Position numbers and translations under genes: made by a program. The notes below the pieces were generated by a model, which saw only the letters and a list, made by a program, of their open reading frames with translations, ran no database searches and was not told the DNA's origin. Positions 8,150 through 64,000 of a DNA stretch of 64,000 bases are shown here, piece after piece. The stretch comes from an uncultured Planctomycetia bacterium (lineage in GTDB: Bacteria; Omnitrophota; Gorgyraeia; 1-14-0-20-64-10), in the NCBI GenBank assembly GCA_964373805.1, contig CAYJWF010000003.1:23001-87000 (forward strand), written 5' to 3'. Numbering within the stretch: the stretch's first letter is position 1; each line of letters begins with the position of its first letter.

Positions 8150-9175
<1,026 letters not shown>

Positions 9176-9188: not shown

Positions 9189-9217
9189 ATATTACCCCTT
9201 TCCAACAGTGGGATCAA
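9189..9217 (-). promoter_or_regulatory. candidate sigma70-type promoter for gap-pgk-tpiA-secG (and downstream dpp genes)
   Basis: Minus-strand reading of the 80-bp gap between fmt stop and gap start: TTGATC, 17-nt spacer, TAATAT. Then ~25-nt leader with AGAGGAGAA Shine-Dalgarno before the gap ATG. Confidence 0.45.
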
Positions 9218-9237
9218 GATAGGTGTTGCGAATCGGA

Positions 9238-10697: not shown

Positions 10698-10711
10698 GTT
10701 ATCGACTCACC

Positions 10712-12715: not shown

Positions 12716-13395
12716 CACTTCTTGAGCTGTTCTAAGACCTTCTTCAAGTCGGCCCAGGCGGTCGGTTTGGCGGCAGGGTTTCGAAGAAGATAGGCCGGAT
12801 GAAAGGTCACCACGACCGGAATCCCCTGCCAGTGGTGTGTCTGTTCCCGGAGTTGATGCAAAGGGGCCTGGGATTCCAGCAGGGCCGTGGCGGCGGTCCT
12901 GCCTAAGGCGCAGATCACCTTCGGTCGGATGACCCTGAGTTGGGCCATCCAGAAGGGACGGCAAGCCAACATCTCATCCGGTTCTGGAGGACGATTCTGG
13001 GGGGGACGACACTTCACGACGTTCGTGATGTAGACTTCGGGTCTGCTTAGCCCCATGGCCTGAATCATCTTCGTGAGCAGCTCTCCCGCCGCGCCGACAA
13101 AGGGTCTGCCTTGGAGGTCTTCCTCTCGGCCGGGCCCTTCCCCCACGAAGACGAGGGACGCTTCCAGAGAGCCTTCTCCAAAGACCACCTTTTTTCTATC
13201 TTGGCTCAAGCGGCAGGCCCGGCAGCCCAGGGCTCGTTGCCGTACCGGCTCGAGGATCGATGTTTTTGAACCTTGGGGAGGAGAGCTTTTTCTGAGAAAG
13301 AGGGTGGTTACCCCAGATTCCTGGGTCCTTTTTAAGAAGGCTTTTGCCCCTCGCACAATCTCTCGGGCCTCGTCAAAGGATTGGTTGGGCATCAA
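12715..13395 (-). CDS. uracil-DNA glycosylase, family 4 (Fe-S type)
   Basis: Motifs FVGEGPGREED and the HPAYLLRN region, plus conserved Cys (GCRACRL...C). Typical of thermophile-type UDG family 4. Confidence 0.75.
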   Translation of the reverse strand: MMPNQSFDEAREIVRGAKAFLKRTQESGVTTLFLRKSSPPQGSKTSILEPVRQRALGCRACRLSQDRKKVVFGEGSLEASLVFVGEGPGREEDLQGRPFVGAAGELLTKMIQAMGLSRPEVYITNVVKCRPPQNRPPEPDEMLACRPFWMAQLRVIRPKVICALGRTAATALLESQAPLHQLREQTHHWQGIPVVVTFHPAYLLRNPAAKPTAWADLKKVLEQLKK

Positions 13396-14516
13396 AAGGG
13401 GCTAGACTCCATGGCCCAGCGAGCGATCTCAAACGCTGCCTCCGGGAGGCGCACTTCGGCTGCCCGTCGCCGCATCCTTTCCAGTGGTTCACCGTTCTCA
13501 TAGAGGTTTTCTACCAGGTGCGGGATCTCTTTCAGCTGATGAACCGCCTGAGCCGTTCCCAGGCTCGTGAGGACGCGCAGGTTGCGAGTCTCCTGCCCTG
13601 GAATGGCCGGAATCAGAATGAGCGGAAGTCCCTTCGTCATCGCTTCCGCACAGGTCAATCCCCCGGGTTTCGTGATCATGAGATCCGAGGCGTCCATGAG
13701 TTCGTCCACGTTGTCGACAAACCCGCAGACCTTTAAGGGATGGGGAACCGTAGGCTTTAGATTCTCCAAGGTTCGAAGGAGAGCTCCATTTTTCCCAGCG
13801 ACCACCACGATCTGGATTGGTTTTTGGACGCGCTGTAAAACCTGCACCAGAGAGACGACCGGTCCCAGCCCTTCCCCACCGGATCCGATGAGCAGGGTAA
13901 ACCGTTCGGGCTCAAGTCCCAATCGGTTCTTAAGATTGTTTCGGTCGTTCTTTCCCTTAAACTTGGGGTCCACCGGGATCCCGGTGACCCGAATTCGATC
14001 GGAAGGGATGCCCCGAGTCAGGAGCTCCTCCTTCGTCTGAGGGGATCCCACCGCGTAACCGTCCACCCCTGGAGAGATCCAGAGGATGTGTGGGAGGTAA
14101 TCGGTAATGACGGTGATCAACCGGGACAAGAGGCGACGCGTCCGTTTCAGATGCGCCGCTACCTCCATGGGGAAAAAGTGACTTCCAATCACGACATCCG
14201 GCTTGAGGGCAAGGAGGAAAGATTCCAGATCTCTTCCATGGCAGGCGTTGCTGAATCGATGGAGGGCCTGAACCGGCCCCATGAGAGGGCGTGCGTCCGT
14301 TAGGTAGTACAGGCCTCCCCAAAGAATGGGGGCCCGTTGAACAAGGTTGAGGTACCCTTGGGTGAAGCACCATCGGTACCAACGGTCGGCCTGGTCTAAG
14401 GCGTTTAGAAAGAAGAGCTCGGCTTCCGGCTCCAAGTGATGGAAAGCTACCGCCAAGGCTTGAGCGGCTTTCTCATGGCCGGATCCCGCCGGGACGTGGG
14501 TGATCACGATTCTCAT
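13392..14516 (-). CDS. GT28 glycosyltransferase, MGDG-synthase/UgtP-like (diacylglycerol glycosyltransferase)
   Basis: N-terminal MGDG_synth-like region (MRIVITHVPAGSGHEKAAQAL) plus C-terminal GT28 region (VVAGKNG...ITKPGGLTCAEA). Confidence 0.7.
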   Translation of the reverse strand: MRIVITHVPAGSGHEKAAQALAVAFHHLEPEAELFFLNALDQADRWYRWCFTQGYLNLVQRAPILWGGLYYLTDARPLMGPVQALHRFSNACHGRDLESFLLALKPDVVIGSHFFPMEVAAHLKRTRRLLSRLITVITDYLPHILWISPGVDGYAVGSPQTKEELLTRGIPSDRIRVTGIPVDPKFKGKNDRNNLKNRLGLEPERFTLLIGSGGEGLGPVVSLVQVLQRVQKPIQIVVVAGKNGALLRTLENLKPTVPHPLKVCGFVDNVDELMDASDLMITKPGGLTCAEAMTKGLPLILIPAIPGQETRNLRVLTSLGTAQAVHQLKEIPHLVENLYENGEPLERMRRRAAEVRLPEAAFEIARWAMESSPF

Positions 14517-15067
14517 GGGTGCCCCAGGATGTACCGGACCGCGCGGTCGAGGTCTTTGACCACCCGGTGGGGGCGAACAGACATGAATCGAGTTGAGGCG
14601 TGGGTTTGTTTTCCCGACAGGACTAGAATCGCCCGACAGCCGGCCTTCAAGCCCATCGCGATATCGGCCTCAGCGTCCCCCACCACGAACGATCGCTTGA
14701 GGTTGATCCCAAAGCGCTGGGCCGCTTTTTTAAGCAGCCCTGTTTTGGGTTTCCGACAGGAACATCCGGCGTCCGGGCGGTGGAGACAGTAGAAGACCGC
14801 GCGGATCTTTCCTCCGGCGGACTCGACTCTTTGGAGCATCCTCTGGGTAATATCGTTCAATTGATTTCGCGTGAGGATGCCACGCCCCACCGCCGACTGA
14901 TTGGAGACGACGATCACCTTCTTGCCGTGGGCCTTGAGCCTCTGAAGGGCCTCGAGGACGCCTGGAAGGAACCGGAACTGTTTCCAGTCCGTTACAAACC
15001 GAGTGGTTGGCGATGCATTGATGACCCCGTCCCGGTCTAGGAAGACCGCTCCCCTTTGGCTTCTCAT
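14513..15067 (-). CDS. gmhB: D-glycero-D-manno-heptose 1,7-bisphosphate phosphatase (HAD family)
   Basis: FLDRDGVIN motif I, VVSNQS motif II, Zn-binding Cys cluster (CLHRPDAGCSCRKP), GDAEAD motif. Confidence 0.8.
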   Translation of the reverse strand: MRSQRGAVFLDRDGVINASPTTRFVTDWKQFRFLPGVLEALQRLKAHGKKVIVVSNQSAVGRGILTRNQLNDITQRMLQRVESAGGKIRAVFYCLHRPDAGCSCRKPKTGLLKKAAQRFGINLKRSFVVGDAEADIAMGLKAGCRAILVLSGKQTHASTRFMSVRPHRVVKDLDRAVRYILGHP

Positions 15068-16035
15068 TCGGGATGAAAGGATCGGATTTTTGTTCTCCAG
15101 TAGTTCAAGAGATCTTCAACTGTTTTTCGCAGTGGGATCTGTGTCTTCCAACCGGTCTTCTCATAGAATTTCGTGCAGTCCCCTCGCAATACCGGGACGT
15201 CGCTCGGACGGAGTCTGCTTTCATCCACCTGGATGGAGATCGGTTTATCCGTCATTTCCAAAAGGGTCTCAAGGACTTGGCGAACGGAGACATCGGTTCC
15301 GGAACAGAGGTTATAAACCTCCCCCGGCTCCCCCTGTTCCAGGGCCAGCCAGTAGCCACGGACGATATCGCGGACATCGCTGAAATCTCGCCGGGCCTGA
15401 AGGTTTCCAACGAGGATGACCGGTTCTTGCTGTCCTGCTTCAATCAGGGCAATCTGTTTTGCAAAGTTGGAGGTCGCAAAGACTTCCCCCCGCCGTGGAC
15501 CGGTGTGGTTAAAGGCACGCGTTCGGACGATCTGCATCCGGTAGCTCTGCGTGTATTGATATCCCAACAGATCCTGGGCCACCTTGGAGACTGCGTAGGG
15601 GCTTAAGGGGCGCAGAGGGTTTGTTTCCTTGACGGGGAGCTCGTTCTCCAAAACCAGGCCGTACTCTTCGGAGCTGCCCGCTATTTGAATGCGTGTGGGA
15701 AGTCCGCTTTCACGGATGGCCTCCAGGAGATTGATTTGTCCCACGGTATTGGTGCTCATCGTTTCCGAGGGGGCAGACCACGACATGGGGACAAAGGACT
15801 GGGCCGCCAGATGGAAGACACGGTCCGGCTTCACCGCGGCGATCACCTGACGAACCGAAGAGGCGTCCCGCAGGTCGCACTCGTACATCTTGATCTTGCC
15901 CTTCAGATGTTCGATGTTGTCGGTCTTGCTTCGCCAGCGCTGGGTCCCGAAAACCTCGATGGCGCCTTGTGCCAGGAGAAACTCTGTCAGGTGACTCCCC
16001 ACAAAACCGGTGATCCCTGTTATGAGGACGCGCAT
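15064..16035 (-). CDS. NAD-dependent epimerase/dehydratase, GDP-mannose 4,6-dehydratase / GDP-6-deoxyhexose reductase-like SDR
   Basis: ITGITGFVGSHL Rossmann motif, YAVSK catalytic motif, 323 aa. Confidence 0.7.
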   Translation of the reverse strand: MRVLITGITGFVGSHLTEFLLAQGAIEVFGTQRWRSKTDNIEHLKGKIKMYECDLRDASSVRQVIAAVKPDRVFHLAAQSFVPMSWSAPSETMSTNTVGQINLLEAIRESGLPTRIQIAGSSEEYGLVLENELPVKETNPLRPLSPYAVSKVAQDLLGYQYTQSYRMQIVRTRAFNHTGPRRGEVFATSNFAKQIALIEAGQQEPVILVGNLQARRDFSDVRDIVRGYWLALEQGEPGEVYNLCSGTDVSVRQVLETLLEMTDKPISIQVDESRLRPSDVPVLRGDCTKFYEKTGWKTQIPLRKTVEDLLNYWRTKIRSFHPE

Positions 16036-16803
16036 TTAAGACTCCTTATGGTGGATGAGTTCCCAAACCTTTGTCCATTTTATGAAATGGACAAAACTGA
16101 ACAGCCCGGAAAAAATCAGCCCATGCCTCCCTTCCAGAAACCCCAGCTTCTTGACGTACATCTTCCAGAAAAGCTTGGCTGGTTTAACCATGATTTGATA
16201 GCGTAGATCCTTCTCGCAGATGCCGCCTTGGCGCTCAAAGATCTCCAGGGCCTCCAGGGTCGTGTAGCGGTTCTGTCGATCACAGAACTGTTCCAGGGAA
16301 TGAAAGGGATGGTGTTCGATCGGGGCCTCTAAGACCCCGATGGTTCCATCAACGATGAGGTCATGATGGACCCGTCCCCGGTAGAAGGCCTTGCCCCTTC
16401 TAAAGAAATGGAGGGAGTAGTGGTACCACCCGCCATGGCGCATCCGGTGGCCCAGGAAGAAGTTTAACCGGCGAAACCGGTAAGCGGCGTGAGAAGAGCC
16501 GTTCTCCAGGATCCGGCCTGCGGCCTGCCGGAACGATTCCGTCACCCGGTCATCCGCATCCAATTGGAGGATCCAATCCTTTGTTGCATGGTCGTTGCCG
16601 ATGTTTCTCTCTTGGCCGAAGTCCCCTTCAAATCGGTGGGTGATGACCTTGGTCCCATAAGAACGACAAATATCCGGCGTACCGTCTGTGCTTTCTCCAT
16701 CCACCACAACGATCTCATCCACCCACCGGATCGTCTCCAGGCAATCCCGGATCTGGAGGGCCTCGTTTTTGGTTAGGATAACGGCGGTGACGGTTTGGCG
16801 CAT
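16036..16803 (-). CDS. GT2 family glycosyltransferase (LPS core-type, WaaE/KdtX-like)
   Basis: VILTKNEA...VVVDGESTDGT...QLDADDRV. These are DxD-containing GT-A motifs. Confidence 0.7.
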   Translation of the reverse strand: MRQTVTAVILTKNEALQIRDCLETIRWVDEIVVVDGESTDGTPDICRSYGTKVITHRFEGDFGQERNIGNDHATKDWILQLDADDRVTESFRQAAGRILENGSSHAAYRFRRLNFFLGHRMRHGGWYHYSLHFFRRGKAFYRGRVHHDLIVDGTIGVLEAPIEHHPFHSLEQFCDRQNRYTTLEALEIFERQGGICEKDLRYQIMVKPAKLFWKMYVKKLGFLEGRHGLIFSGLFSFVHFIKWTKVWELIHHKES

Positions 16804-17555
16804 GTTTGGCGGGCAAGCCAGTACTTCGAGAAGCTTAAGAATTGGTACATGCCGGCGAGAACGGCCATGATAAAACCCAACAGCCCCTCTTTGTAACCTT
16901 CTTTTCCTCTATAGACTCGAAAAAATCGGTCCACGGTTCGCCAAAGCCCCTTGCCTACCCCCATCGATCGGCCGTCCCTCAGCCATTTTTTAGCCTCCAG
17001 GGTGGTCTGTCGATTGAGTTTGGCGACGAAGTCCTCCAGATCCCGATAGGAGTAATGGAGGAGGTCGTTTTTTAGACAACCGGTGTCCCCATCGAGGAAG
17101 GCCCTCGGGTGGACCTCCACTTCTTCATACCGAAAGCGCCCCTTTCGAAACAACCTCAACTGTGGGCTTGGGTAGAACCCACCGTAGCGTAACCAGTGCC
17201 GACCCAGGAAGTTCCGTCGGGGAATCGTGTAGCCGTGGCAGACCGGCGAACCTTCTAAGAGACGGATCATCTCTTCTCGAAGTTCCGGGGTCACCCGTTC
17301 ATCGGCATCGAGGCTCAAGATCCACTCTTGGGATGCCAAGCCGTAGGCGAAGTTGCGGTGCCTGCCCTCCACATCCATCTTTCGCTGGATGACGCGATCG
17401 GTAAACCGCCTGGCAATCGCCACCGTACGATCCGTACTAAAGTCATCCAGGACGATCAGCTCCGCGGCCCATCGGACCGATTCAAGACAGTCGGCGAGGC
17501 GCCCCTCTTCATTCTGGGTGATGACGACTACAGAGAGTGGGACAGGGCTTGGCAT
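16773..17555 (-). CDS. GT2 family glycosyltransferase, paralog of the previous gene
   Basis: LSVVVITQNEE...LDDFSTDRT...SLDADERV, with the same architecture as 16036..16803. Start assigned to internal ATG (MPSPVPLSVVVIT). Track ORF extends to 17612. Confidence 0.65.
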   Translation of the reverse strand: MPSPVPLSVVVITQNEEGRLADCLESVRWAAELIVLDDFSTDRTVAIARRFTDRVIQRKMDVEGRHRNFAYGLASQEWILSLDADERVTPELREEMIRLLEGSPVCHGYTIPRRNFLGRHWLRYGGFYPSPQLRLFRKGRFRYEEVEVHPRAFLDGDTGCLKNDLLHYSYRDLEDFVAKLNRQTTLEAKKWLRDGRSMGVGKGLWRTVDRFFRVYRGKEGYKEGLLGFIMAVLAGMYQFLSFSKYWLARQTCAKPSPPLS

Positions 17556-18622
17556 CGCTTGAGAAGTTCTTCCTCGGAAGGGGTCTCCAGAAGTTGGGCC
17601 CGATAGAGCCATCGGAGCCGCCTCAACCAGCCGGACCAGGTGGCATCGTAGCTGACGACGAGGTCAAACGGCTTCTTCCGTTTCAAGAGCAGACGCACGG
17701 TCCCTTGGAGTCGCCATCGATTTCCTTGGGTTGGAAGGCGGCTCACCTGCGCATGGGTTAAGATCTCTGAGGACAAGTTCTCGGATGGGGTCAGTAGGGT
17801 GAGCCAATGGCCTTGACGGGTGCAGTCCAACAGAACCTTCTGCCAACCGGGCTCGGTGGCGGTCTCCGTCCGCAAGGGCCCTAAGAGGATTCGTAGCCGG
17901 CGACCCCACCTTTCTTCAAACCGCTGGCGGTTCTTTTCAAAGGCCTCTTCCCAACCCGCCAGCTCCCTGAAGCTTGCCTTCTCTTCGTGAAACACATAGG
18001 CCGCACAGGCCCGTACAGATCGCAGGCCCTTTGCTTGGACCCGTCGGGACAGGTCATCGTCATCAAAGTTGCCCATGCCGAATGATTCGTCCAAAAGGCC
18101 GATCCGATCAAACAGCCGGCGTCTCGCCAGCAGGCAGAACCCCAGCGCGGTGGACAGCTCGGTCCATTGTCCGGACTGGGATTGGAGGCTCTTGGCGTAC
18201 TCACCAGGGGTGAGCCGGCCGGGGGAAAAACCGAGGGAATTGCTGGTGGGATTGACCAGGCCAATGGAGGAATCGGCTTGGGCTACCCGCAGCATCTCGG
18301 TGAGCCATCCCGGGGTGACGACGGTGTCGTTGTTTAAAAGGCAGACCCAGGGAGACTGGGAGGCTCGAATCCCTTGGTTCGTCGCCTGGATAAAGCCAAG
18401 GTTGGTGGCGTTCCGGATCAGGGTAACCGGTAACCGATTTTGGGTTTGGAAATGTTCGAGATACTCCTCCGTGGGGGGAGAAGATCCGTTGTCGATCAGG
18501 ATAAGACGGACCGGTTCCGAGGTCGATTCCAGAATGCTGTCAAGACAACGCTGGGTGAGCGCGAGCTTGTTCCAGATGGGGATAACGATATCGCAGACCG
18601 TGGCAAAGGTGGTTTCACTCAT
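17528..18622 (-). CDS. GT2 family glycosyltransferase with ~120 aa C-terminal extension
   Basis: IVIPIWNK...ILIDNGS...LLNNDTVV...NFDDDD, a typical rhamnosyl/galactosyl-transferase-like GT-A N-terminal domain. Confidence 0.7.
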   Translation of the reverse strand: MSETTFATVCDIVIPIWNKLALTQRCLDSILESTSEPVRLILIDNGSSPPTEEYLEHFQTQNRLPVTLIRNATNLGFIQATNQGIRASQSPWVCLLNNDTVVTPGWLTEMLRVAQADSSIGLVNPTSNSLGFSPGRLTPGEYAKSLQSQSGQWTELSTALGFCLLARRRLFDRIGLLDESFGMGNFDDDDLSRRVQAKGLRSVRACAAYVFHEEKASFRELAGWEEAFEKNRQRFEERWGRRLRILLGPLRTETATEPGWQKVLLDCTRQGHWLTLLTPSENLSSEILTHAQVSRLPTQGNRWRLQGTVRLLLKRKKPFDLVVSYDATWSGWLRRLRWLYRAQLLETPSEEELLKRCQALSHSL

Positions 18623-19731
18623 CCTTGGGTGAGCCCTCGGATCTTAAGTTCCTGGGTCGCCTGCTCGACTCGATCTTCGGCAACCTCTGGTTGGCCCCAC
18701 TCCACCAGTTGACTTAAGCCGCTTTTTAAGGAGACGGCTGGGTGAAATCCTAGGGTGCTCAGCTTAGAGATGTCGGCCAGACAATGGCGAATATCTCCGG
18801 CTCTAAATTGTTGGGTGAGCTGTGGTCGAACGGAAACCCGGAAGAGCTCGATTAAATTCTCAGCCATTTCAAGAATCGTGGTGGGCTGACCGGTCCCCAC
18901 GTTGAAGACCCCGTAGTCCGCCCGGCGGTTTTCCATGGCGAGGAGATTCGCCTGAACGATGTCTGAGACGTGGATAAAATCGCGGGATTGCCGGCCGTCC
19001 TCGAAAATCAAGGGGGGATGCCCATTTTTGATTCGCGAAGAGAAGATGGCGCAGACCCCGGTGTAAGGATTGGAAAGGGACTGCCGAGGTCCGTAGACGT
19101 TAAAGTATCGTAAGGCCACCGTTGGAATCGAATAGCTTCTGCCTACGGTGAGGCAGAGCTCTTCCTGGTCTCGCTTGGAGATCGCGTAGACAGAGGTGGG
19201 GGAGAGCGGCTTTTCCTCCAAGGTAAGAGAAGGTTCCACCGGCTGACGGCACCGGGGGCAAGTTATCTCCCATTTTCGTTCTTTAAGCTGTAGCTCGGAC
19301 CGAAGAGAAGGGAAAACCGGTCCGCATCGACCACAGCGGTAGGCCCCCTCCCCGTAGAGGCTCATGGAGCTGGCCACCACCAACTTCTGAATGGGAAAAC
19401 GCTCCTGGACAATCGTTTCCAAGAGTACCGCCGTTCCCACGACGTTGTTGGAGGTGTACTTCTCGATCTGATACATGGACTGCCCTACCCCCACCGAGGC
19501 GGCTTCATGGAAGATGATCTCTCGCTCCTGTAGGGCCTGTCGTAGCAACCGCCGGTCTCGGACATCCCCCCAGAGATATTCCGCCTTGGCGTTAAGGTAC
19601 GCAGGCCTCTTTCCCCCGTGCACCTGCTCCTCGAGGTTATCCAGGACCCGGACCGAATGGCCCTGCTGCACCAAGGCATCGACCAGATGGGAGCCGATGA
19701 ACCCCGCCCCTCCGGTAACGAGGATTCTCAT
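18619..19731 (-). CDS. NAD-dependent epimerase/dehydratase with inserted Cys4 zinc-ribbon
   Basis: VTGGAGFIGSHLV and YAISK motifs. About 50-aa insertion YRCGRCGPVF...WEITCPRCRQPV between the Rossmann core and the catalytic Tyr. Confidence 0.7.
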   Translation of the reverse strand: MRILVTGGAGFIGSHLVDALVQQGHSVRVLDNLEEQVHGGKRPAYLNAKAEYLWGDVRDRRLLRQALQEREIIFHEAASVGVGQSMYQIEKYTSNNVVGTAVLLETIVQERFPIQKLVVASSMSLYGEGAYRCGRCGPVFPSLRSELQLKERKWEITCPRCRQPVEPSLTLEEKPLSPTSVYAISKRDQEELCLTVGRSYSIPTVALRYFNVYGPRQSLSNPYTGVCAIFSSRIKNGHPPLIFEDGRQSRDFIHVSDIVQANLLAMENRRADYGVFNVGTGQPTTILEMAENLIELFRVSVRPQLTQQFRAGDIRHCLADISKLSTLGFHPAVSLKSGLSQLVEWGQPEVAEDRVEQATQELKIRGLTQG

Positions 19732-22325: not shown

Positions 22326-22353
22326 CTGAGCATGCAAAGCGAATTGAGGCGTT

Positions 22354-24913: not shown

Positions 24914-24932
24914 AAACTTTCCGAATGGAGGG

Positions 24933-26915: not shown

Positions 26916-26930
26916 GGAGTCCGCATGTTT

Positions 26931-33992: not shown

Positions 33993-34044
33993 CCATCCGG
34001 AAAAACGATTATAGCACTAATCACGCAATCGACCAAGGTCTCCA
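33993..34044 (-). promoter_or_regulatory. candidate sigma70-type promoter inside the glycan locus
   Basis: 52-bp gap read on the minus strand: TTGGTC, 17-nt spacer, perfect TATAAT. The GT4 ATG lies ~15 nt downstream, giving a very short leader. Confidence 0.4.
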
Positions 34045-37084: not shown

Positions 37085-37093
37085 AAGGAGAAA

Positions 37094-42955: not shown

Positions 42956-42957
42956 CG

Positions 42958-44984: not shown

Positions 44985-44997
44985 TATGGGGTTCCTT

Positions 44998-52078: not shown

Positions 52079-52106
52079 CTTATTTTCTCTAGGCTCCTCG
52101 CCCTCA

Positions 52107-53764: not shown

Positions 53765-53768
53765 GGGG

Positions 53769-54788: not shown

Positions 54789-54816
54789 CTTTACCTTCTG
54801 CTGGAGGGTGGAAGGA

Positions 54817-55536: not shown

Positions 55537-55564
55537 CTGGCCTGCCTTTTTACCTGCCCGGGGT

Positions 55565-56641: not shown

Positions 56642-57638
56642 GATAATACAGGGGCACACACCAGTGGTTCTTGGCCACCCAGTCGGTGTTTGGCAGTTCG
56701 ACATCGCGGTGGAATATCCGGTGACACGGCTGGTCGTATACCTTACCGGTAGATTCCTTCACCGGTTCAAAGACAATGTACTTGTAGTAACCGGAGCTCA
56801 TCCCCTCCGGAAACGTTAGCCGGGAAGGATAGACAGGATCCAGAACCCTCTGGGCAAACTCTCTCTTCCAATCTACGATCTCTGGCATTCGCTCGACTTG
56901 GAGGCAACCAAGGGCTGCTGTAAATTCACTGATTCTGTAGTTAAGCCCTTCGATGGAGTAGCTCGGTTTCCCGTAGTTTCGATAGGATCGGGCAAAGGCT
57001 GCCAGTGTCTCATGTCGGGTCACCAGCATTCCCCCCTCCCCTGTCGAAATGGTCTTTGTGGCGGTGAAGGAATAGATCCCCGCATCCCCCCACGTTCCAG
57101 GCCTGCGACCGTTCCACTGGGCGCCATGAGCGTGCGCGCAGTCCTCCAGTAAGAAGATCCCCTGCTTTAGGCAATAGGCAGCGATGGCCGCCACATCAAA
57201 GGCGATGTGACCTCCGATGTGAACAAGCCATGCGGCGGTTGGACGATGCGCCTTAGCCTTGCGGACAAAGTCTTCGTAAGACATGCAGAGGTCTCTTGGA
57301 TTGCAGTCGACAAATTCCACACGACCCCCCGCCTTAAGCGTAGAAAGAGGAGTGGCCATGAAGGTATTGGAGGGACACAACACCACCTGGTCTCGAACAT
57401 GGGCGTACTCCAGGGCCGCCATGGCAGCCCCAGCCCAGCTTCCCGTCGCCACCGAAGGCAACCCGTTCCATAAGGACCAGAGCTCCTCAAAGCGAGCCGT
57501 AAATGGTCCTTCCGTCCAGCGTTGGGATGTCAGAATGCGGTCCCACATTTCATGAAGACGGTTCCTGTCCCGTTGGTCAAATCCGATGGCGAAGGCCATC
57601 GTTTGTTCCGGACACATCTTAAGGTCGGAGGGCAGCAT
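56610..57638 (-). CDS. DegT/DnrJ/EryC1/StrS family PLP-dependent aminotransferase (sugar-nucleotide 4-aminotransferase, PseC/LegC-like)
   Basis: Fold-type I sugar aminotransferase layout. The FTATKTISTGEGG block is where DegT-family enzymes carry their PLP-binding lysine. ~340 aa. Alternative start ATG ~57617. Confidence 0.7.
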   Translation of the reverse strand: MLPSDLKMCPEQTMAFAIGFDQRDRNRLHEMWDRILTSQRWTEGPFTARFEELWSLWNGLPSVATGSWAGAAMAALEYAHVRDQVVLCPSNTFMATPLSTLKAGGRVEFVDCNPRDLCMSYEDFVRKAKAHRPTAAWLVHIGGHIAFDVAAIAAYCLKQGIFLLEDCAHAHGAQWNGRRPGTWGDAGIYSFTATKTISTGEGGMLVTRHETLAAFARSYRNYGKPSYSIEGLNYRISEFTAALGCLQVERMPEIVDWKREFAQRVLDPVYPSRLTFPEGMSSGYYKYIVFEPVKESTGKVYDQPCHRIFHRDVELPNTDWVAKNHWCVPLYYHGGQEKYADK

Positions 57639-58563
57639 CTGCCTTATTCCAAGTTTGGATCTGTTGTTCCTGACGGGAGCGATACCAATCGATATAACGC
57701 TCTAGTCCATCTCGGAAGGTGGTGGTGGCCTTCCAGCCCAACTCCTTCTCCGCCTTGGCGCTGTGGACACGCTTGCCCGGAAAATCCCCTGGTCGAGCGG
57801 AGGTGGCCAGAACCTGAACGTCTCCTAAGATCTCCTGAAGGGTCTGGACAATCTGTTTAATGCTGATACGATCACTTCCATCCAGGTTGTAGATCTGGTT
57901 GACTGCACCGGGTTTCAGGCTCAGCACAATGCCTTCCGCTAAGTCCTCCACGTAAACAAACTGGCGGAACTGCATGCCGTCCCCTGCAACCGTTAGCGGC
58001 TCTCCCTTCAAGGCCCTGCCGACGAAAATGGGGATGACTGCCCCATCGCGCGCTCGCGGACCATAAGGAATGCCAAAGCGAAGGATCGTGTATTCCAAGT
58101 TGTACAGTACGGAATAGGCACGGCAGTAGTATTCGGAGGCAATCTTGGTGGCCGTATAAAGGTGCGAAGGGGGTGGGATCGGCGTCTCCTCATTCACCTC
58201 CGCATCGGGGCAATCGCTGTAAACCCAGCTGGTACTTCCATAGAGGAGGCGCTTGACACGACAGCGTCGTGCAGCCTCTAGAACACAGAGGGTACCCCGT
58301 GTATTAACGGTTTCTGCGTAGGATGGATCTTCCATGACCTCCTTGACATCGGCGACTGCCGCGAGATGTATGACGGCGTGGATTCCCGCCATGGCAATCC
58401 GGAGAGCCTCAACGTCCAGGATGCTTCCGATGAAATGTTCCACCTCTGTATGAACCGTTGAACGATGATGGTCAAAGATCAGGGGTGTAATCCCGTGCGA
58501 CATCAAGCGATCCACCACATGGGAACCAATAAACCCCGCGCCACCTGTCACGAGAACTCTCAT
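57619..58563 (-). CDS. NAD-dependent epimerase/dehydratase (GalE-like SDR)
   Basis: VTGGAGFIGSHVV and YTATK motifs. Confidence 0.75.
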   Translation of the reverse strand: MRVLVTGGAGFIGSHVVDRLMSHGITPLIFDHHRSTVHTEVEHFIGSILDVEALRIAMAGIHAVIHLAAVADVKEVMEDPSYAETVNTRGTLCVLEAARRCRVKRLLYGSTSWVYSDCPDAEVNEETPIPPPSHLYTATKIASEYYCRAYSVLYNLEYTILRFGIPYGPRARDGAVIPIFVGRALKGEPLTVAGDGMQFRQFVYVEDLAEGIVLSLKPGAVNQIYNLDGSDRISIKQIVQTLQEILGDVQVLATSARPGDFPGKRVHSAKAEKELGWKATTTFRDGLERYIDWYRSRQEQQIQTWNKADAALRP

Positions 58564-59573
58564 GCGACCGTTCCTTTTTGGGCAGACGCCAGATGCCGTC
58601 GAAGAAGCTCCAAAGCGGTCTTCGCCGCTTTGGTCTGAGATTCCACGGTGGCCCCTGCCATATGCGGTGTGATGACGATCTGCCCCCGTTGATGGTAAGC
58701 CAAAAGAGGAGAGTTCTTCTGCTGATGGGTTACCTCCCCGGCTAACACATCCAATCCAACGCGCAGATCCGGTCGCTTGGAAAGAACATCGGCCAAGTCC
58801 TGTTCAAGGATGACCTCTCCACGGGATGTATTGACCAGACAAGCCCCCCATTTCAGTCTTTCGAGAAAGGAGTGGTTAATGAATCCTGTCGTTTCAGGGG
58901 TAAGTCGACAGCAAAGACAGATAACTTCCGATCGGCTAAAGAGTTCCTCCAGCGATTCGGTGGGATAGACATCGGAGGTGACGTACGGATCGAAGTAGGA
59001 TACTCGAGCCCCAAAGGCAATGCAGTAATGGGCCAACCGCTGACCGATTCGCCCAAGGCCGATGATTCCCACCCGTTTACCCTGCAATTCGTGGCCTCGA
59101 AGTCGCTCCTCTCGATCCCGCCATCGCCCAGCAGAAACTTCTTGGATTGCTACATCGAGGCGGCGAAGGGTGTTCAGAAGTAACAAAAACGTGAATTCCG
59201 AGCTGGCCGAGATCTGCACGAGAGCGGCTCGATCATCCAAGAGGCTGTAGACGGAAACCCCTCGCCGGGTACACGCCTCCAGATCGATGTGGTTACAGCC
59301 GGTGGAGGGGGTAACCAACACGGACAGAGAAGGATACAGGTCCAAGATCGCCTCATCGATGACAAACAGTTGTCCAGGGTTTACCACCCATGCCGTAAGG
59401 TCCTCCGCAGGACTCAGCTCTTGACGACGCCAGATCTCTTTAAAGATGGTTGGGATCAAGGACTGGTAGGCCTCCACGAGCTTTCCGAGGAATTCAAACG
59501 GCGCACTAAAGAGGCACCATCCGGTTTTTACACCTGCGAGAGCCGTTGGGGAAGATGGATGGGGTGTCCCCAT
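58560..59573 (-). CDS. D-isomer-specific 2-hydroxyacid dehydrogenase family protein (NAD-binding)
   Basis: GIIGLGRIGQRLA dinucleotide-binding motif, conserved R/E/H catalytic arrangement (TSRG...ITPHMAG). Confidence 0.7.
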   Translation of the reverse strand: MGTPHPSSPTALAGVKTGWCLFSAPFEFLGKLVEAYQSLIPTIFKEIWRRQELSPAEDLTAWVVNPGQLFVIDEAILDLYPSLSVLVTPSTGCNHIDLEACTRRGVSVYSLLDDRAALVQISASSEFTFLLLLNTLRRLDVAIQEVSAGRWRDREERLRGHELQGKRVGIIGLGRIGQRLAHYCIAFGARVSYFDPYVTSDVYPTESLEELFSRSEVICLCCRLTPETTGFINHSFLERLKWGACLVNTSRGEVILEQDLADVLSKRPDLRVGLDVLAGEVTHQQKNSPLLAYHQRGQIVITPHMAGATVESQTKAAKTALELLRRHLASAQKGTVA

Positions 59574-59574
59574 A

Positions 59575-60318
59575 TCAAAGATTCCTCGCTACCCCGGAGA
59601 GGTTGTTCAAGGTTGCCTCTGCCATCATGGACAACTCCGGTCCCAGAGTCGTCAAAAGACGAAACTCATCTGGTGTAGCGCTTAAGATGTGATCGCGGAT
59701 AACCTGGGAAGTCTTATTCAACGTAAAGTGCTTCTCGATGTAACGTGCACCCCGAGCTGCAGCCAACAAACAAGCGGCGATTCCATGGCAATGGTCGCTG
59801 TAGCCATAATAGCCATCCGATCCAAAAAGCGGGGGGAAATCCGTTAGGTCCGAAGGATAGGTCGGGTATTTCGACCGGCAGTAAATGTAATGCAGGCGAT
59901 GGGCATCGGGCTGCCCGAATGGGAAACCAGGCCTGTCCCACATACCAAGCGAAACGTAGGTCGGCTTGCCCTCCGATAAGATCCGCTCGCATAAGGCGGG
60001 GTTGTCAACCACCGTCCTTGAAGCGATCTTGTATCGCTGCAATCCAATGCCCTGGGCAAGGGCGAGCCCTTCCTCCGTTATGAGGGAAGCTAACATCTCA
60101 ATGCCGATGCCCTCACACCAGGCCTTTAGTTGCCTAGCTTGCTTCTCATCGATCTGATTGATTTCCCCTGGATTGCAACGCCATCCGAACTGGAACTTCG
60201 CCAGTTCAGCGCCGGCCATCCTTGCCTGCCGGATCAGCTCGTAGGCCAGATCGAAATTGCCATCGTGGTTTAATCCGATCTCAGCAACAAGAACCATCTG
60301 TTTATCTGCTAAGGCCAT
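59575..60318 (-). CDS. NeuB-family TIM-barrel protein lacking the C-terminal SAF domain (divergent nonulosonic/ulosonic acid synthase-like)
   Basis: VAEIGLNHDGN, AELAKFQ, YKIASR, YVSLGM, YSDHCHG and IEKHFTLNK match NeuB barrel motifs. The protein ends ~40 aa after the barrel, 247 aa. Confidence 0.6.
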   Translation of the reverse strand: MALADKQMVLVAEIGLNHDGNFDLAYELIRQARMAGAELAKFQFGWRCNPGEINQIDEKQARQLKAWCEGIGIEMLASLITEEGLALAQGIGLQRYKIASRTVVDNPALCERILSEGKPTYVSLGMWDRPGFPFGQPDAHRLHYIYCRSKYPTYPSDLTDFPPLFGSDGYYGYSDHCHGIAACLLAAARGARYIEKHFTLNKTSQVIRDHILSATPDEFRLLTTLGPELSMMAEATLNNLSGVARNL

Positions 60319-60336
60319 CTTATGTTCTTTCCTCCA

Positions 60337-61737
60337 TCACATCGCAGTAGACAGACTTACCGTTCTTTGTAAAAGGATCTGTTCGATAAGCCAAGCGTCA
60401 TAAGGCGTTTTAATTTGATAGCTCTCGTGCCCGGGCATAACCACATGCCCAACTTTTCGACCGAGGAGGTCTTTCGCGGTCAACACATCGCGCCAGCATG
60501 CCTTGATCGCTCCATTGTCCACATACAGTGCTTCCCGCTCGATTCGTATCTGATGGTGCATGGCTGGGTTTAAGGGTGTGAGTCCATGGATGCCATGGAC
60601 ATAATGAAGTTTATAATCCTCATAGACGCTCAGGACGCTGTCTGTGTTATACAGGATGAGCGTGTCAATCGCTTCCCGGATATGTTCTGCTCGACGAAGC
60701 GGAGTATGAACATTCAGCAGAACAAGAATATCCGAGTAGACCCCGTGTTCCTCTTCCAGGCGGCGCACAGCATCCTCGGCTATTTCGCTTTCCAGGATCC
60801 GATCCCCAGAAAGTTCCACTGGCCGGAGCATCGCTAGGACTTCGGGAAAACGCCGACAGTATTCAACTACTTGCGGATCATCGGTAGTCACCAGCATGAC
60901 CTCAAAACTGCCAGTTTGTTGGGCGGCCTCTATGGTGTAATCAATCAGCAGGCGATCTGCCAACTTCGTCAGGACGATGTTCGGTAGAGCTTTATACGTG
61001 TTTTTAGCGGTCACAATCGCCACGGCACGGGGTGTACCGTTCCCACCTCTTCGTTCCACTATATCTCGCTTGATCCGACCTCGTGCTTGCAGCAATCGTG
61101 ATTCATCTTTTGTGAGTGACTCATCATGTTGCCGGTAGAAGAACAGAGGTGTGTGGACATTCGCTACGCCATAACGGTGTAGTATCTTTAGCCACAACTC
61201 ATAACCATCCTGGCTGTTGTAACGTTCGTCATATCCACCCAAGCTCTTGAGCGCCCGTTTACGGATTAAGGTGCCTGCGCCGTGCGCAGGAAGATCCAAA
61301 AGTTGTGCCTCTTGCCCAATCCGTTTACGCTGCTCAAGCCCTAAATAGTTGCCACGTTCATCTACATAGATGTAGTTCGGATAGACTAACGCCACCTCCG
61401 GATAGCGATCAAGATAAGATCCCAGGACAAGGAGTGCATTCTCATCCAGGTAGTCATCGGCATCCAGCCGCATGATATAAAGGCCACGGGCAATGGCAAG
61501 GGCCTCATTCGCAGACACCTGAAGACCCCGCACTTGAGGATGGGTGATGACGGAGATCTTTGAAGGGTTACTTGCCCGATAGGAGGCGGCAATGGCCGAC
61601 GTTTGGTCCTGCGACCCATCATCAATGATGATCAGTTCCCAATCAGGCATTGTTTGTAACAGTACGCTTTCTATCGCCTGGGCGAGGAAGTGTCCATACC
61701 GGTGGCATGGAATGTAAACGGTAACTCTACATTCCAT
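60337..61737 (-). CDS. fusion protein: GT2 glycosyltransferase (N) + acylneuraminate cytidylyltransferase-like CTP_transf_3 domain (C)
   Basis: N-terminus has VYIPCHRYGHFL...IIIDDGSQD...RLDADDYL (GT-A DxD). C-terminus has AIVTAKNTYKALPNIVLTKLADRLLIDYTIEAA, a NeuA/KdsB-like glycine-poor variant. Confidence 0.6.
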   Translation of the reverse strand: MECRVTVYIPCHRYGHFLAQAIESVLLQTMPDWELIIIDDGSQDQTSAIAASYRASNPSKISVITHPQVRGLQVSANEALAIARGLYIMRLDADDYLDENALLVLGSYLDRYPEVALVYPNYIYVDERGNYLGLEQRKRIGQEAQLLDLPAHGAGTLIRKRALKSLGGYDERYNSQDGYELWLKILHRYGVANVHTPLFFYRQHDESLTKDESRLLQARGRIKRDIVERRGGNGTPRAVAIVTAKNTYKALPNIVLTKLADRLLIDYTIEAAQQTGSFEVMLVTTDDPQVVEYCRRFPEVLAMLRPVELSGDRILESEIAEDAVRRLEEEHGVYSDILVLLNVHTPLRRAEHIREAIDTLILYNTDSVLSVYEDYKLHYVHGIHGLTPLNPAMHHQIRIEREALYVDNGAIKACWRDVLTAKDLLGRKVGHVVMPGHESYQIKTPYDAWLIEQILLQRTVSLSTAM

Positions 61738-63808
61738 GCCACACCTTTTCGTTGATAATCGGCACGGCCACTTCTCTGGTCTCTATCTCAAGAGGAATCT
61801 GTTGTTTTCTAGGTTGATCAGGGTAAGAATCGCCGCGCTGCACCCTGACGACCAAGCCCCAAATCGCCTCACGGAAGCGCTGAATATTCTGGCCATCGGC
61901 GAAGTAAGTCTGCTCATGGGCAAAACGCTCCCATTCGCAATCCAGGATGGGATGACCATAGAGGGCTCCCTTCATGGCGCGTACGAATTGATCGGCCTTG
62001 GTTATGACGAAGTCGGCCCCGTAATCACCAAAGGTCACTTCCCCTAATCCCTCGGTATCAAACGAAAAACATTTTTTCCCAGCCGCTCCCGCTTCGATAA
62101 CCACGGAAGAGGCTGAATTGCCGACCACAACATCAGCGACTGCAATCCATTCATAGGTAGAGAGCTCAACCGAATCCCAGATAACACGAGGGTGAGTCAT
62201 CAGAGACCGCAGGGACGGTTCGCCACGGTACCTTTCCAAGCTTTTCCGGCTGCGGGGTCGAAGGACGACCCATAACTCTGGAATGGCCTCTAGGGCTTGG
62301 AGGATCCCACGGTACAACTCTGGAAAACGATCTGGGATTTGATATTCAACATCAGCCGGATGAGTGGGTAATGTGACCAAAACCACGGCACCATGGATTC
62401 CCCACCGACTCCGTATCTGGGTACGTAGTGATCCGAGACTTTCTGGTTTTAGAGCTTGTACCACATAATCCAACCGATGATTTCCAATGGGCATACATTC
62501 AACAGCATCCCAATGGTGGCCGAACGCCTTTCTAAATCTTTCGTTCCATACACACAAACGATTCATAAACAGATAGCGGATCTCTGGAAATACATGGGTC
62601 AGAGAATTTGCGGAATGGTGTACACCGACGGTGGCTCTGCCAAAATGGTTTGCAACGATGGTTCGCATCACGCTGTTGGGCTCATAATCAGCGCACTCAA
62701 CGCGAACAGAGTACTGTACACGGCGATTGAACAATAGCTCCTTCAGCAGTGCCGACAAGATGAAGCCTGATGCAAGAACGACGGCAGGTGGTTCCATCAA
62801 AAGCGCGACAGGATTTTGGATAAGTGCCTTTGCCAAACTTGCTGCTAGTCTGTAGATCTCAGACCGATGAGACTTGTCCGCACGAAGGGTGACCGCGTCA
62901 AACCATCGGATTCCCCGTTGTGACATCAAACGTTCTTGTTCGGCCCGTTCTTCTGCGGTAAGCCTCCATGAACTGTAATAGAAGGCTACTGTATGGCTGT
63001 TTAATTCCCCACCGAAAAATGACTCATTATCCCATTGCAGCCGCTTCTTATCGGACAACTTCCAAACCAGAGGAACGACGACCGGTACGTTTACAACCGG
63101 CTGGTCGGGAACACCCGGATGAAAAGATCGAAAGATATGGCGAATCAACACCGCTGGCCAGACAGCCCCATTCATAAAAAGTGCCGTTATCCTTCGCCGC
63201 CACACGCTCCATGGATTGAGCATCCGAATAGATCGAGGAAACTGGGCTCCCTTGAGCTCGAAGTGGCGACGAGTCTGCCAAGGATCGTCATCTTCTGGAA
63301 TCAGGGTAATGGCGCCTTCCTCCTTCAGGAGATATTCTGCAAACCGATAGAACTGAGTTGCGGCATGGATGTATGGTAGCAGAAGTCTGCTGTACATCCG
63401 GTCCACAGCGTCATTCGCCACAATCTTGTACAATACCTGATAACTTTTCATGCACCGGACACGCTGCATGGCCGCTTCGACATAGACGTCGCTGGCGTAA
63501 AGATTCAACTGTCCCAGTCGGTTACGTGTGGCACGATCGACCCTACTGACCTGACCGCCTGCCAACCGGCGGAGCAACCACCATGTCAGCCGGTTCACCC
63601 GTCCTTCGGGCCGCCTATCCTCAAGCGTATAAGGGTCGAATACCAGAACTTTCTTTGCCTGTCGGATCTCGCGCCATGAAGCAACTATTCGGGCCAGGCC
63701 GACCGATTGTAATAAGACAATATCTCGGCTTCTATTGCTTTCCGGCATATTCTTCCACGAAGCCTCGTTCCATAATCTTGTAACTTTCTTCCGCCTTCTG
63801 CGGTTCAC
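61727..63808 (-). CDS. hypothetical protein, paralog C of the three-member family (putative transferase)
   Basis: 693 aa. Central block VRVECADYEPNS...RATVGVHHSANSLTH aligns with the other two paralogs. Start uncertain: an internal ATG ~63748 reduces overlap with the next ORF. Confidence 0.5.
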   Translation of the reverse strand: MNRRRRKKVTRLWNEASWKNMPESNRSRDIVLLQSVGLARIVASWREIRQAKKVLVFDPYTLEDRRPEGRVNRLTWWLLRRLAGGQVSRVDRATRNRLGQLNLYASDVYVEAAMQRVRCMKSYQVLYKIVANDAVDRMYSRLLLPYIHAATQFYRFAEYLLKEEGAITLIPEDDDPWQTRRHFELKGAQFPRSIRMLNPWSVWRRRITALFMNGAVWPAVLIRHIFRSFHPGVPDQPVVNVPVVVPLVWKLSDKKRLQWDNESFFGGELNSHTVAFYYSSWRLTAEERAEQERLMSQRGIRWFDAVTLRADKSHRSEIYRLAASLAKALIQNPVALLMEPPAVVLASGFILSALLKELLFNRRVQYSVRVECADYEPNSVMRTIVANHFGRATVGVHHSANSLTHVFPEIRYLFMNRLCVWNERFRKAFGHHWDAVECMPIGNHRLDYVVQALKPESLGSLRTQIRSRWGIHGAVVLVTLPTHPADVEYQIPDRFPELYRGILQALEAIPELWVVLRPRSRKSLERYRGEPSLRSLMTHPRVIWDSVELSTYEWIAVADVVVGNSASSVVIEAGAAGKKCFSFDTEGLGEVTFGDYGADFVITKADQFVRAMKGALYGHPILDCEWERFAHEQTYFADGQNIQRFREAIWGLVVRVQRGDSYPDQPRKQQIPLEIETREVAVPIINEKVWHGM

Positions 63809-63989
63809 GGCTGGGTGTAAGGATGAAGTTGCTGTCTTCCGTTACTGGGAGCCGAACCGCATCAACACCAGGGTCGTCTCGATGGCGCATAACCGAGTCC
63901 CTTAGTGACCAGTTCCCCTTATCGTCCTGTTCCCAAATCGATGAGGACCGCTTTGCATCGACCCATTCCCAAAACTCCCGCTCATTCAT
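63732..63989 (-). CDS. possible small hypothetical protein (85 aa) at window edge
   Basis: Only ORF-track support. Acidic/Trp-rich sequence, not antisense to any gene. May extend beyond the window. Confidence 0.25.
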   Translation of the reverse strand: MNEREFWEWVDAKRSSSIWEQDDKGNWSLRDSVMRHRDDPGVDAVRLPVTEDSNFILTPSREPQKAEESYKIMERGFVEEYAGKQ

Positions 63990-64000
63990 GTCCAGCCAAG

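Follow-up and report, generated by a model that had tools for sequence, protein, structure and literature searches.

The rfb (O-antigen) locus of Leptospira interrogans is a very long array of glycan genes that are nearly all co-directional. Here we describe a 64,000-nucleotide stretch of DNA (contig CAYJWF010000003.1, assembly GCA_964373805.1; hereafter the window) in which 45 back-to-back minus-strand genes (g13 to g57; 13392-63748) and the 3' end of a 46th (g58) resemble the Leptospira array, both being long co-directional glycan arrays with multiple nonulosonic-acid genes. Our analysis indicated that this region is probably the main envelope-glycan supercluster of an Omnitrophota bacterium, organised like a lipopolysaccharide (LPS) core and O-antigen region. 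Such a locus is known in kind, as a bacterial envelope-glycan supercluster with an LPS-core-type block and an O-antigen-type variable region. The part of interest consists of two recurrent, biochemically unstudied cassettes and an unnamed family with the glycosyltransferase-B (GT-B) fold, and by these alone the locus is not categorically new. To our knowledge, no cell-surface structure has been determined for Omnitrophota, an uncultured phylum.

The window differs from the Leptospira rfb locus in belonging to another phylum and in adding an ArnC-like/GT-C pair and the g54-g57 cassette. Leptospira is also the name source of the LIC12162 (TIGR04331) and LIC13510 (TIGR04326) families, to which the window contributes g43 and, weakly, g35. 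The Leptospira nonulosonic-acid (NulO) cluster holds multiple NulO synthases, aminotransferases and CMP-NulO synthetases, and the paper describing it mentions neither radical S-adenosylmethionine (SAM) enzymes nor methyltransferases in that cluster (PMC3438082). The pathways for pseudaminic (Pse) and legionaminic (Leg) acids (Campylobacter PseB-C-H-G-I-F; Bacillus subtilis sps) have homologues in the window for an aminotransferase (g52), a PseG-type hydrolase (g48), a NeuB-type synthase (g49) and a CMP-transferase (g46), and a CgeB-like glycosyltransferase nearby recalls the Bacillus spore crust. In contrast to these pathways, the short-chain dehydrogenase/reductase (SDR) g53 is RmlB/GalE-like and not PseB-like (45.6 bits against a PseB cutoff of 407), and the window adds conserved SPASM radical SAM, WbqC, PIG-L, B12 radical SAM and LIC12162 proteins. 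Enterobacterial waa loci and the ArnC/ArnT system share with the window the GT9 genes beside a Wzy_C ligase, a GT2 enzyme with transmembrane (TM) helices paired with a PMT_2-type GT-C enzyme, and a GmhB-like phosphatase, whereas the window lacks WaaA, ArnA/B/D and ArnE/F and has a methyltransferase gene inside the pair.

Gene starts were set by minimal overlap and then compared with gene calls on identical public contigs. An open reading frame (ORF) scan showed that the minus strand carries all long ORFs of 13392-63748, with a coding fraction of 98.3%. Under conservative start choices the intergenic gaps did not exceed about 110 nt, and most junctions were 4-nt overlaps (many of them ATGA) or gaps of less than 30 nt, in agreement with the original prediction, made from the sequence without database searches, of about 45 co-directional genes with almost no spacing. 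Pfam and NCBIfam scans of every gene identified a glycan-enzyme domain in almost all of them, and one gene, encoding a secreted S8 peptidase with a LamG domain (29958-31781), is not a glycan enzyme. Nearly all genes passed Pfam gathering thresholds.

The central claim of the original prediction, that one co-directional locus joins three sets of glycan genes, was supported. LPS-core-type genes are represented by two GT9 genes, a GmhB-like gene and the Wzy_C ligase, polyprenyl-phosphate-linked steps by the WecA-type initiator, the PMT_2 GT-C and an ArnC-like GT2 whose C-terminus has TM helices, and the third set consists of nonulosonic-acid genes. At least ten glycosyltransferases had been expected and eleven GT-type genes were counted: one GT28/MGDG-synthase-like, six GT2 (including the ArnC-like gene and a GT2-cytidylyltransferase fusion), two GT9, one GT4 and one CgeB-like, beyond which lie one PseG-like GT28_C hydrolase and one LIC12162-family transferase. 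The scans also recovered two radical SAM enzymes (both with a CX3CX2C motif), three CTP_transf_3 cytidylyltransferase domains, two NeuB-family genes, three domain fusions and a high density of methyltransferases, all as anticipated. The figure of at least seven SAM methyltransferases is reached only by counting a B12 radical SAM C-methyltransferase-like enzyme with the six class-I/FkbM enzymes. Two other counts had been too high: the expected eight SDRs reduced to six extended SDRs, the other two NAD enzymes being a GFO/IDH/MocA protein and a 2-hydroxyacid dehydrogenase, and among three expected GT-C enzymes one lies above the PMT_2 threshold (22354-23835), one is sub-threshold (34764-36041) and the third was not found.

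Housekeeping genes (secG, tpiA, pgk, gap, fmt, def, priA and uracil-DNA glycosylase) fill positions 1-13395. At the other end the locus does not stop at 64000: a WbuX-type N-acetyl-sugar amidotransferase gene follows, of which the window contains only the 3' end (g58; 63735-64000, minus strand; 265 nt). A contig 99.995% identical to the window (L083) reaches 788 nt further, and the 351 C-terminal residues that it supplies (L083 1-1057) scored 242.2 bits against the TIGR03573 (WbuX) cutoff of 203.2. Since this gene runs off the end of the window, the locus continues past 64000 and exceeds 50 kb; the WbuX-type neighbour fits with amidino-type decoration. Identical or near-identical sequence was present in the assemblies of runs ERR4904391 and ERR4904392, as well as on a 98.6-kb NCBI contig.

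The relationships of the organism were examined through g28, the initiating transferase gene. A scan limited to one genome per species returned 15 full-length matches of 64-69% identity, all in Candidatus Omnitrophota metagenome-assembled genomes (MAGs), some of which were deposited as 'uncultured Planctomycetia'. As the closest relatives of g28 are Omnitrophota MAGs, the organism was taken to be an uncultured Candidatus Omnitrophota bacterium. Comparison by tblastn of all window proteins with the 15 Omnitrophota loci and their 10-kb flanks revealed a collinear block common to all 15, with 41-80% amino-acid identity, that comprises g18-g24, g26, g27, g28, g30 and g31; g15-g17 join this block in some of the loci only, and g25 (methyltransferase) and g29 (protease) are insertions in the window's lineage. 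Gene content upstream of g30/g31 differed from species to species, with g33, g34, g36 and g37 recurring in a few loci. For g35 and g38-g57 no homologue of matching function was found in the 10-kb flanks of the relatives, where only weak paralogue-level matches (24-34% identity) occurred. The earlier description of the locus as 'core but lineage-specific' is therefore borne out for the proximal 15-34 kb or so, which is collinear in 15 Omnitrophota MAGs, but not for the distal 30 kb, which is absent from these flanks. The distal block (34-64 kb and beyond) is assembled from cassettes found in other lineages, once beside insertion sequence (IS) elements. For another Omnitrophota lineage, a 2026 preprint has reported a hyper-variable O-antigen/polysaccharide cassette that includes a ligase and heptosyltransferase II.

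In the proximal block, the WecA-type g28 (28153-29961, minus strand, as are all genes named below) would start the glycan on undecaprenyl phosphate. A WecA-like initiating transferase had been predicted, and the protein was found to be a fusion of the WecA/MraY-type polyprenyl-phosphate sugar-phosphate transferase type (Glycos_transf_4, 115.9 bits; CoA_binding_3, 39.8 bits). Its motif 'NAFNLMDNMDG' fits the NxxNxxDGxDG type, and the WecA equivalog TIGR02380 was missed (95.8 against 326 bits). The C-terminus carries a WbaP-type four-TM (4TM) and CoA_binding_3 module without the catalytic Bac_transf domain, and EPS_sugtrans positions 2-225 match residues 365-592. In WbaP-type phosphoglycosyl transferases this module is typically N-terminal, and the initiator is thus a hybrid. 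MAGs with other labels, Gaiellales, Bdellovibrionales and Gemmatimonadetes among them, encode the same fusion architecture with 31-36% identity (L017, L019, L022).

Cytoplasmic GT2 and GT4 enzymes would lengthen this glycan, and two GT9 enzymes would build a heptose-type core for which the GmhB-like phosphatase is the putative supplier. The two GT9 heptosyltransferase-family genes, g24 (23822-24913; Glyco_transf_9, 93.9 bits) and g26 (25923-26915; 106 bits), exceeded the Glyco_transf_9 cutoff of 22 bits but missed the heptosyltransferase I/II/III equivalogs (101-102 bits for g24 and 95 bits for g26, against cutoffs of 134.6-185). The predicted GmhB, g14 (14513-15067), passed the domain models of a HAD-IIIA heptose-bisphosphate phosphatase (TIGR01662, 112.8 against 44.6 bits) but narrowly missed the equivalog (NF006506, 172.7 against 178 bits; TIGR00213, 113.2 against 149.6). 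At the outer face of the inner membrane, the ligase g27 (26931-28190; about 10 TM segments) would couple the lipid-linked glycan to an acceptor. Its prediction as an O-antigen ligase agrees with a Wzy_C score of 83.5 bits (cutoff 31.7), which is compatible with either a WaaL-type or an O-oligosaccharyltransferase-type enzyme. In NCBIfam, g27 was best matched by two models that are not WaaL-specific, one for the IctB family and one named 'putative O-glycosylation ligase, exosortase A-associated'.

A second polyprenyl-phosphate-linked step is suggested by g21 and g23, in which the ArnC-like g21 would attach a sugar to polyprenyl phosphate for periplasmic transfer by the GT-C enzyme g23. The ArnC/GtrB/PgfS-like g21 (20540-21643; GT2, 90.7 bits) is a GT2 enzyme with C-terminal TM helices (TM segments near residues 240 and 272) that scored 190.8 bits for PgfS and 134.7 bits for ArnC (cutoff 529), both below cutoff. 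The ArnT/PMT-like membrane enzyme g23 (22354-23835) scored 33.1 against the PMT_2 cutoff of 26.1, and a crude hydropathy count gave 5-9 TM segments for its homologues in the relatives. No NCBIfam match and no match to an ArnT model was found for g23, and domain scans found no Arn partners in the window. The proposed ArnC-like/ArnT-like pair therefore stands as an architecture of GT2-with-TM and PMT_2 GT-C, but not at the level of ArnC/ArnT equivalogs or of Arn partners. Lipid A/core would be the acceptor for the GT-C enzyme and LPS the final product, and it is plausible that the structure of the glycan is undescribed.

The distal block (g32-g58 and beyond) would provide variable, strain-specific decoration from three cassettes, each putatively centred on a cytidylyltransferase (g37, g46 and the C-terminus of g56) beside a large GT-B-type protein (g35, g43 and g57). 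The middle cassette would make a Pse/Leg-like nonulosonic acid, which may then be tailored by WbqC, a PIG-L deacetylase, several SAM methyltransferases and two radical SAM proteins, one a SPASM enzyme and the other a cobalamin methyltransferase-like enzyme; the amidotransferase beyond the window would add further tailoring.

This middle cassette includes g43 (46633-48471), a LIC12162-family (TIGR04331/PF27859) putative transferase that scored 483.9 bits against a cutoff of 225 and spans TIGR04331 profile positions 1-585 of 585. PF27859 is precomputed for g43 and its homologues, of which more than 300 were found. Next lie g44, a cobalamin-binding radical SAM protein of the KedN5-like C-methyltransferase family, and the methyltransferase g45 (48431-51462). 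Both g44 domains passed their cutoffs (B12-binding, 35.5 against 32.1 bits; Radical_SAM, 39.3 against 29.5) and the CX3CX2C motif is at C204-C208-C211 (CPFTCNFC), but the KedN5 model scored below its cutoff (181 against 700). Domain scans identified the core of the cassette (51443-58563), in order, as the CMP-transferase g46, PIG-L deacetylase g47, PseG-like hydrolase g48, NeuB+SAF synthase g49, WbqC protein g50, SPASM radical SAM enzyme g51, DegT aminotransferase g52 and SDR g53. The synthase g49 contains NeuB (281.8 bits) and SAF (47.6 bits) domains, and among solved proteins it is closest to a pseudaminic acid synthase (192.9 bits), followed by B. subtilis SpsE (179.9 bits). The hydrolase g48 is of the PseG type, not the NeuC type.

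The NCBIfam scan showed that no nonulosonic-acid pathway gene reached a Pse, Leg or Neu equivalog threshold; besides the PseB score given above, PseC (128.7 against 423), PseG (106.4 against 153.6), PseI (289.7 against 340) and PseF (99 against 205.7) were all below cutoff. Window domain scans found no PseH-type GNAT acetyltransferase, no LegH-type acetyltransferase and no PseB-like dehydratase. Assignment to a single nonulosonic-acid type was rejected, as TIGRFAM favoured a NeuB/LegI-type synthase and the PDB comparison a PseI-type. The inferred product is a Pse/Leg-like sugar whose N-acyl and methyl decoration would be non-canonical.

The neighbourhoods of four g43 homologues hold the same genes as the window cassette. 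In one of them (L092) ten genes follow in the order DegT, SDR, SPASM radical SAM (352 aa), WbqC (239 aa), NeuB+SAF, PseG-like (331 aa), PIG-L (221 aa), CTP_transf_3, B12 radical SAM and LIC12162, with 43-77% identity to g52/g53, g51-g46 and g43; its LIC12162 protein is source-labelled Nitrospira sp. In two others (L088 and L089) the cassette is collinear at 49-75% identity and flanked by IS genes, which suggests that the cassette moves horizontally. A further contig (L093) carries homologues of g44 (45%) and g45 (53%). Because the same genes surround g43 homologues elsewhere, g43-g53 can be regarded as one instance of a widespread, portable cassette. The IS (rve integrase) genes directly follow the homologous cassette at 12484-14634 and 18907-20123 in L088 and at 12484-14298 in L089.

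The second recurrent cassette (g54-g57) consists of a D-2-hydroxyacid dehydrogenase (g54), a NeuB-like TIM barrel (g55) and a GT2 and CTP_transf_3 fusion (g56), which together occupy 58560-61737 according to domain scans, and g57 (61727-63748), a 673-aa GT-B-fold enzyme of an unnamed family whose start matches an identical database entry (P0001). For g55 only the NeuB barrel was detected (96.8 bits), with no SAF domain. No Pfam, NCBIfam or PDB sequence match was found for g57. A HMMER search of 1.84 billion representatives returned 359 relatives, mostly of 600-660 aa. The family has a single invariant histidine (H378) and a conserved C-terminal glutamate (E552), and g57 carries a long helical insertion in its N-terminal half. 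A high-confidence AlphaFold2 (AF2) model from a 100-sequence run has a GT-B fold, in which g57 is predicted to form two Rossmann-like domains with structural likeness to solved GT-B enzymes, most of all UDP-GlcNAc 2-epimerase/NeuC, TagF/TarL and the CMP-Kdo-binding domain of WaaA. An earlier model from 6 sequences was poor (pLDDT 60.7) and was set aside in favour of this run. The TagF/TarL- and NeuC-type enzymes resemble g57 in fold and in having a gene for a cytidylyl-activating enzyme next door, but their sequence identity to g57 is only about 10-13%.

Homologues of this cassette were found in other contigs. L084 is collinear with g54-g57 (58-67% identity, and 64-67% for g54-g56): it has a g57-like gene, a GT2+CTP_transf_3 fusion, a SAF-less NeuB and a 2-hydroxyacid dehydrogenase, together with a TylF methyltransferase. 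In L085, L086 and L090 the g57-like gene occurs with CTP_transf_3, NeuB+SAF, a LarA-like protein and a GT2+CTP_transf_3 fusion. The constant partners of g57-type genes are thus the GT2-cytidylyltransferase fusion and a NeuB-family enzyme. A metagenome scan with a narrow g57-family alignment found one locus. Two natural fusions of the g57-type domain were observed (P0055 and P0017), one with a B12-binding radical SAM N-terminal half and the other with an Epimerase_2/Glyphos_transf/polysialyltransferase-like GT-B N-terminal half.

Profile-profile alignment (hhalign) matched the g35 family to the C-terminal half of the g57 family with a probability of 95.9% (E 5e-9) and g43 (LIC12162) to the g57 family with a probability of 77.7% (E 2e-5), and the g57 region with H378 and E552 aligned to LIC12162 such that 'HHSANS' faces the 'QHGGGYG' motif. 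These alignments indicate that g35, g43 and g57 are probably remotely related GT-B enzymes by their C-terminal domain, each beside a cytidylyltransferase (g37, g46 and the g56 C-terminus). Treating the three as one family was rejected, as the g57-family hidden Markov model (HMM) missed g35 and g43 and single-sequence hhalign comparisons were insignificant.

It is possible, if rather doubtful, that the distal block contains an undescribed nonulosonic-acid branch, in which a cross-phyla ten-gene cassette remodels a Pse/Leg-type nine-carbon sugar through a SPASM/twitch radical SAM enzyme and a cobalamin-dependent radical SAM methyltransferase (C-methylation), LIC12162-type GT-B enzymes install the products, and g57 and g35 represent two further, unnamed sister families of transferases or polymerases. 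On this reading WbqC and PIG-L may replace the usual N-acetyltransferase step, and the g57/g35 families may act on CMP- or CDP-activated acidic sugars. In the literature searched, no work joined radical SAM enzymes with nonulosonic acids, the LIC12162 family was mentioned in a single paper, and nothing informative was found on WbqC or LIC12162.

Several results weigh against reading the whole region as an LPS-type supercluster. Genes for lipid A, Kdo (WaaA, KdsB) and Lpt are absent from the window, and it has no recognisable Wzx, Wzy, Wzz, Wzm/Wzt or GtrA/ArnEF-type flippase; as no such flippase, polymerase, exporter, lipid A or Kdo gene is present, the acceptor and the export route are not encoded in the window. 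The GT9, WecA, ArnC, GmhB, PseB/C/G/I/F and NeuB matches all fall below NCBIfam equivalog cutoffs, and Wzy_C models do not separate WaaL from protein O-oligosaccharyltransferases (PglL/PilO) or some polymerases. The link between the GT-B proteins and the cytidylyltransferases is one of adjacency only, and g57 could be an NDP-sugar hydrolase/2-epimerase (NeuC-like) instead of a transferase/polymerase (TagF-like). In addition, GC content at third codon positions (GC3) is 0.68 in genes 0-24 but 0.58 in genes 25-57 (Mann-Whitney p = 2.5e-10). This step, at 24.9 kb between g24 and g25, is offset from the synteny boundary near 34 kb, such that the conserved g26-g31 lie on the low-GC3 side.

This division of the region into blocks by conservation and composition could alternatively be interpreted as several independent, adjacent and co-oriented operons, namely a glycolipid synthase, an LPS core and one or more horizontally acquired cassettes for capsule, exopolysaccharide (EPS) or appendage glycosylation. 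We consider this unlikely, even though the distal cassettes stand alone in unrelated contigs, once IS-flanked, g13 is nearer to diacylglycerol glycolipid synthases than to LPS enzymes, and an unrelated secreted protease is inserted at 29958-31781. No intergenic gap exceeds the roughly 110 nt given above, and across the 20 kb scanned (24001-44000) promoter-like sites were no more frequent than in shuffled sequence. In the same interval, matches resembling terminators outnumbered the shuffle mean (33 against 19.5), but these are short stems within coding sequence and were given no weight. A single initiating transferase and a single ligase are present in the window, and neither capsule export genes (Wza/Wzc/KpsMT) nor Maf-type flagellin transferases were found there.

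A further alternative, which appears rather improbable, is that all of the locus, or the part that depends on the ligase, belongs to a system for general protein O-glycosylation or S-layer glycosylation. In this case g27 would be a PglL/PilO-type oligosaccharyltransferase that, in the manner of Tannerella or Neisseria, passes an undecaprenyl-PP-linked, nonulosonic-acid-capped glycan to proteins of the periplasm or the cell surface. Pfam Wzy_C spans both WaaL and O-oligosaccharyltransferases, the best NCBIfam matches of g27 are not specific to WaaL, the best match of g21 is PgfS of a protein-glycosylation system, nonulosonic-acid-capped protein glycans are known in Tannerella, and the absence of lipid A and Kdo genes from the window is in keeping with such a function. 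However, the ligase is flanked by two GT9 genes and accompanied by a GmhB-like gene, which is a classical LPS-core signature, and a ligase with heptosyltransferase II was described as an LPS/O-antigen cassette in the other Omnitrophota lineage. A capsule/EPS function for the region was judged unlikely, as no Wza/Wzc/Kps genes occur in the window.

Taken as an envelope-glycan supercluster, a locus of more than 50 kb implies that this organism invests heavily in its surface chemistry. The combination of a conserved core-type block with a swappable distal block predicts strain-level antigenic variation, which bears on phage and host/prey interactions in groundwater communities. The two compact recurrent cassettes, one a nonulosonic-acid pathway with two radical SAM enzymes and the other a NeuB-like/GT2-cytidylyltransferase/GT-B set, are clonable and expressible. 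They give concrete access to new reactions of sugar tailoring and to the poorly characterised transferases of sialic-acid-like sugars.

The remaining genes of the proximal block are mostly glycosyltransferases and SDRs. The first gene of the locus, g13 (13392-14516), encodes a GT28/MGDG-synthase-like glycolipid glycosyltransferase (MGDG_synth, 93.4 bits; Glyco_tran_28_C, 43.7 bits) that scored below the cutoff of the diglucosyl-diacylglycerol (DAG) synthase model (198 against 500 bits). It is followed, beyond g14, by g15 (15064-16035), an extended SDR of the GDP-mannose-4,6-dehydratase-like type (GDP_Man_Dehyd, 294.5 bits) that scored below the gmd cutoff (204.7 against 415 bits), and by three GT2 genes with Glycos_transf_2 matches: g16 (16036-16803; 67.9 bits), g17 (16773-17555; 65.5 bits) and g18 (17528-18622; 94.2 bits). 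The extended SDR epimerase/dehydratase g19 (18619-19731; Epimerase, 181.9 bits) is 66-70% identical in four related MAG loci (L003, L004, L008, L018), and the GT2 gene g20 (19732-20496; Glycos_transf_2, 43.3 bits) shows 57-69% identity in the relatives. The methyltransferase gene between g21 and g23 is g22 (21552-22337), a class-I SAM enzyme (Methyltransf_23, 48.7 bits). At the upstream side, the extended SDR g30 (31762-32772; UDP-sugar dehydratase/decarboxylase-like; GDP_Man_Dehyd, 197 bits) is the best-conserved gene of the block (74-80% identity) and lies directly upstream of the g28 homologue in most relatives, and g31 (32772-33992) is a GT4 glycosyltransferase (Glyco_trans_1_4, 98 bits; Glyco_transf_4, 70.6 bits).

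Of the two insertions in this block, the zinc-ribbon and class-I methyltransferase g25 (24933-25922; Methyltransf_23, 90.5 bits) was present in 0/15 related loci. The secreted S8 subtilase g29 (29958-31781; Peptidase_S8, 49.5 bits; Laminin_G_3, 73 bits) sits between g28 and g30, has a fervidolysin-like prodomain at its N-terminus and has a homologue in 1/15 related loci.

Outside its two recurrent cassettes, the distal block starts with g32 (34045-34767), a small membrane-anchored protein for which no Pfam or NCBIfam match was found; it is 38-43% identical in L004 and L016, and 29% identical in the unrelated contig L090 (5121-5831), beside a g57-type cassette. The candidate second GT-C membrane protein g33 (34764-36041) scored 24.6 against the PMT_2 cutoff of 26.1 and occurs in 4/15 relatives, and g34 (36038-37084) is the CgeB-like glycosyltransferase (Glyco_trans_1_2, 129.1 bits; DUF3880, 23.7 bits). 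The 708-aa soluble protein g35 (37094-39220) is TIGR04326-like but below cutoff (81.9 against 250 bits), and only 6 homologues were found. Next to it, the SDR g36 (39217-40149; Epimerase, 139 bits) and the cytidylyltransferase g37 (40146-40937; CTP_transf_3, 42.4 bits) form a pair that is 72-73% identical in L003 and L014. In the fusion protein g38 (40934-42955; Methyltransf_23, 71.9 bits; Aminotran_1_2, 132.5 bits), a zinc-ribbon/class-I methyltransferase is joined to a class I/II aminotransferase of HisC/CobD-like type; g38 scored below the hisC cutoff (230.6 against 276 bits). Its methyltransferase domain and g25 are paralogues (27% identity), both with an N-terminal four-cysteine zinc-ribbon-like motif. 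Between this gene and the nonulosonic-acid cassette are the GFO/IDH/MocA oxidoreductase g39, SDR g40, class-I methyltransferase g41 and FkbM methyltransferase g42 (42958-46660; FkbM, 92.7 bits).

No tRNA, Rfam family or mobile-element gene was found in the window, the last as originally predicted, and no repeats other than Rossmann-motif coding sequence common to four SDR genes. About 10 kb downstream of the locus, the minus strand carries at 934-3173 a polysaccharide deacetylase gene and a 508-aa ORF that ends in a class-I methyltransferase domain. Set apart from the locus by housekeeping genes, they may be further envelope-glycan genes.

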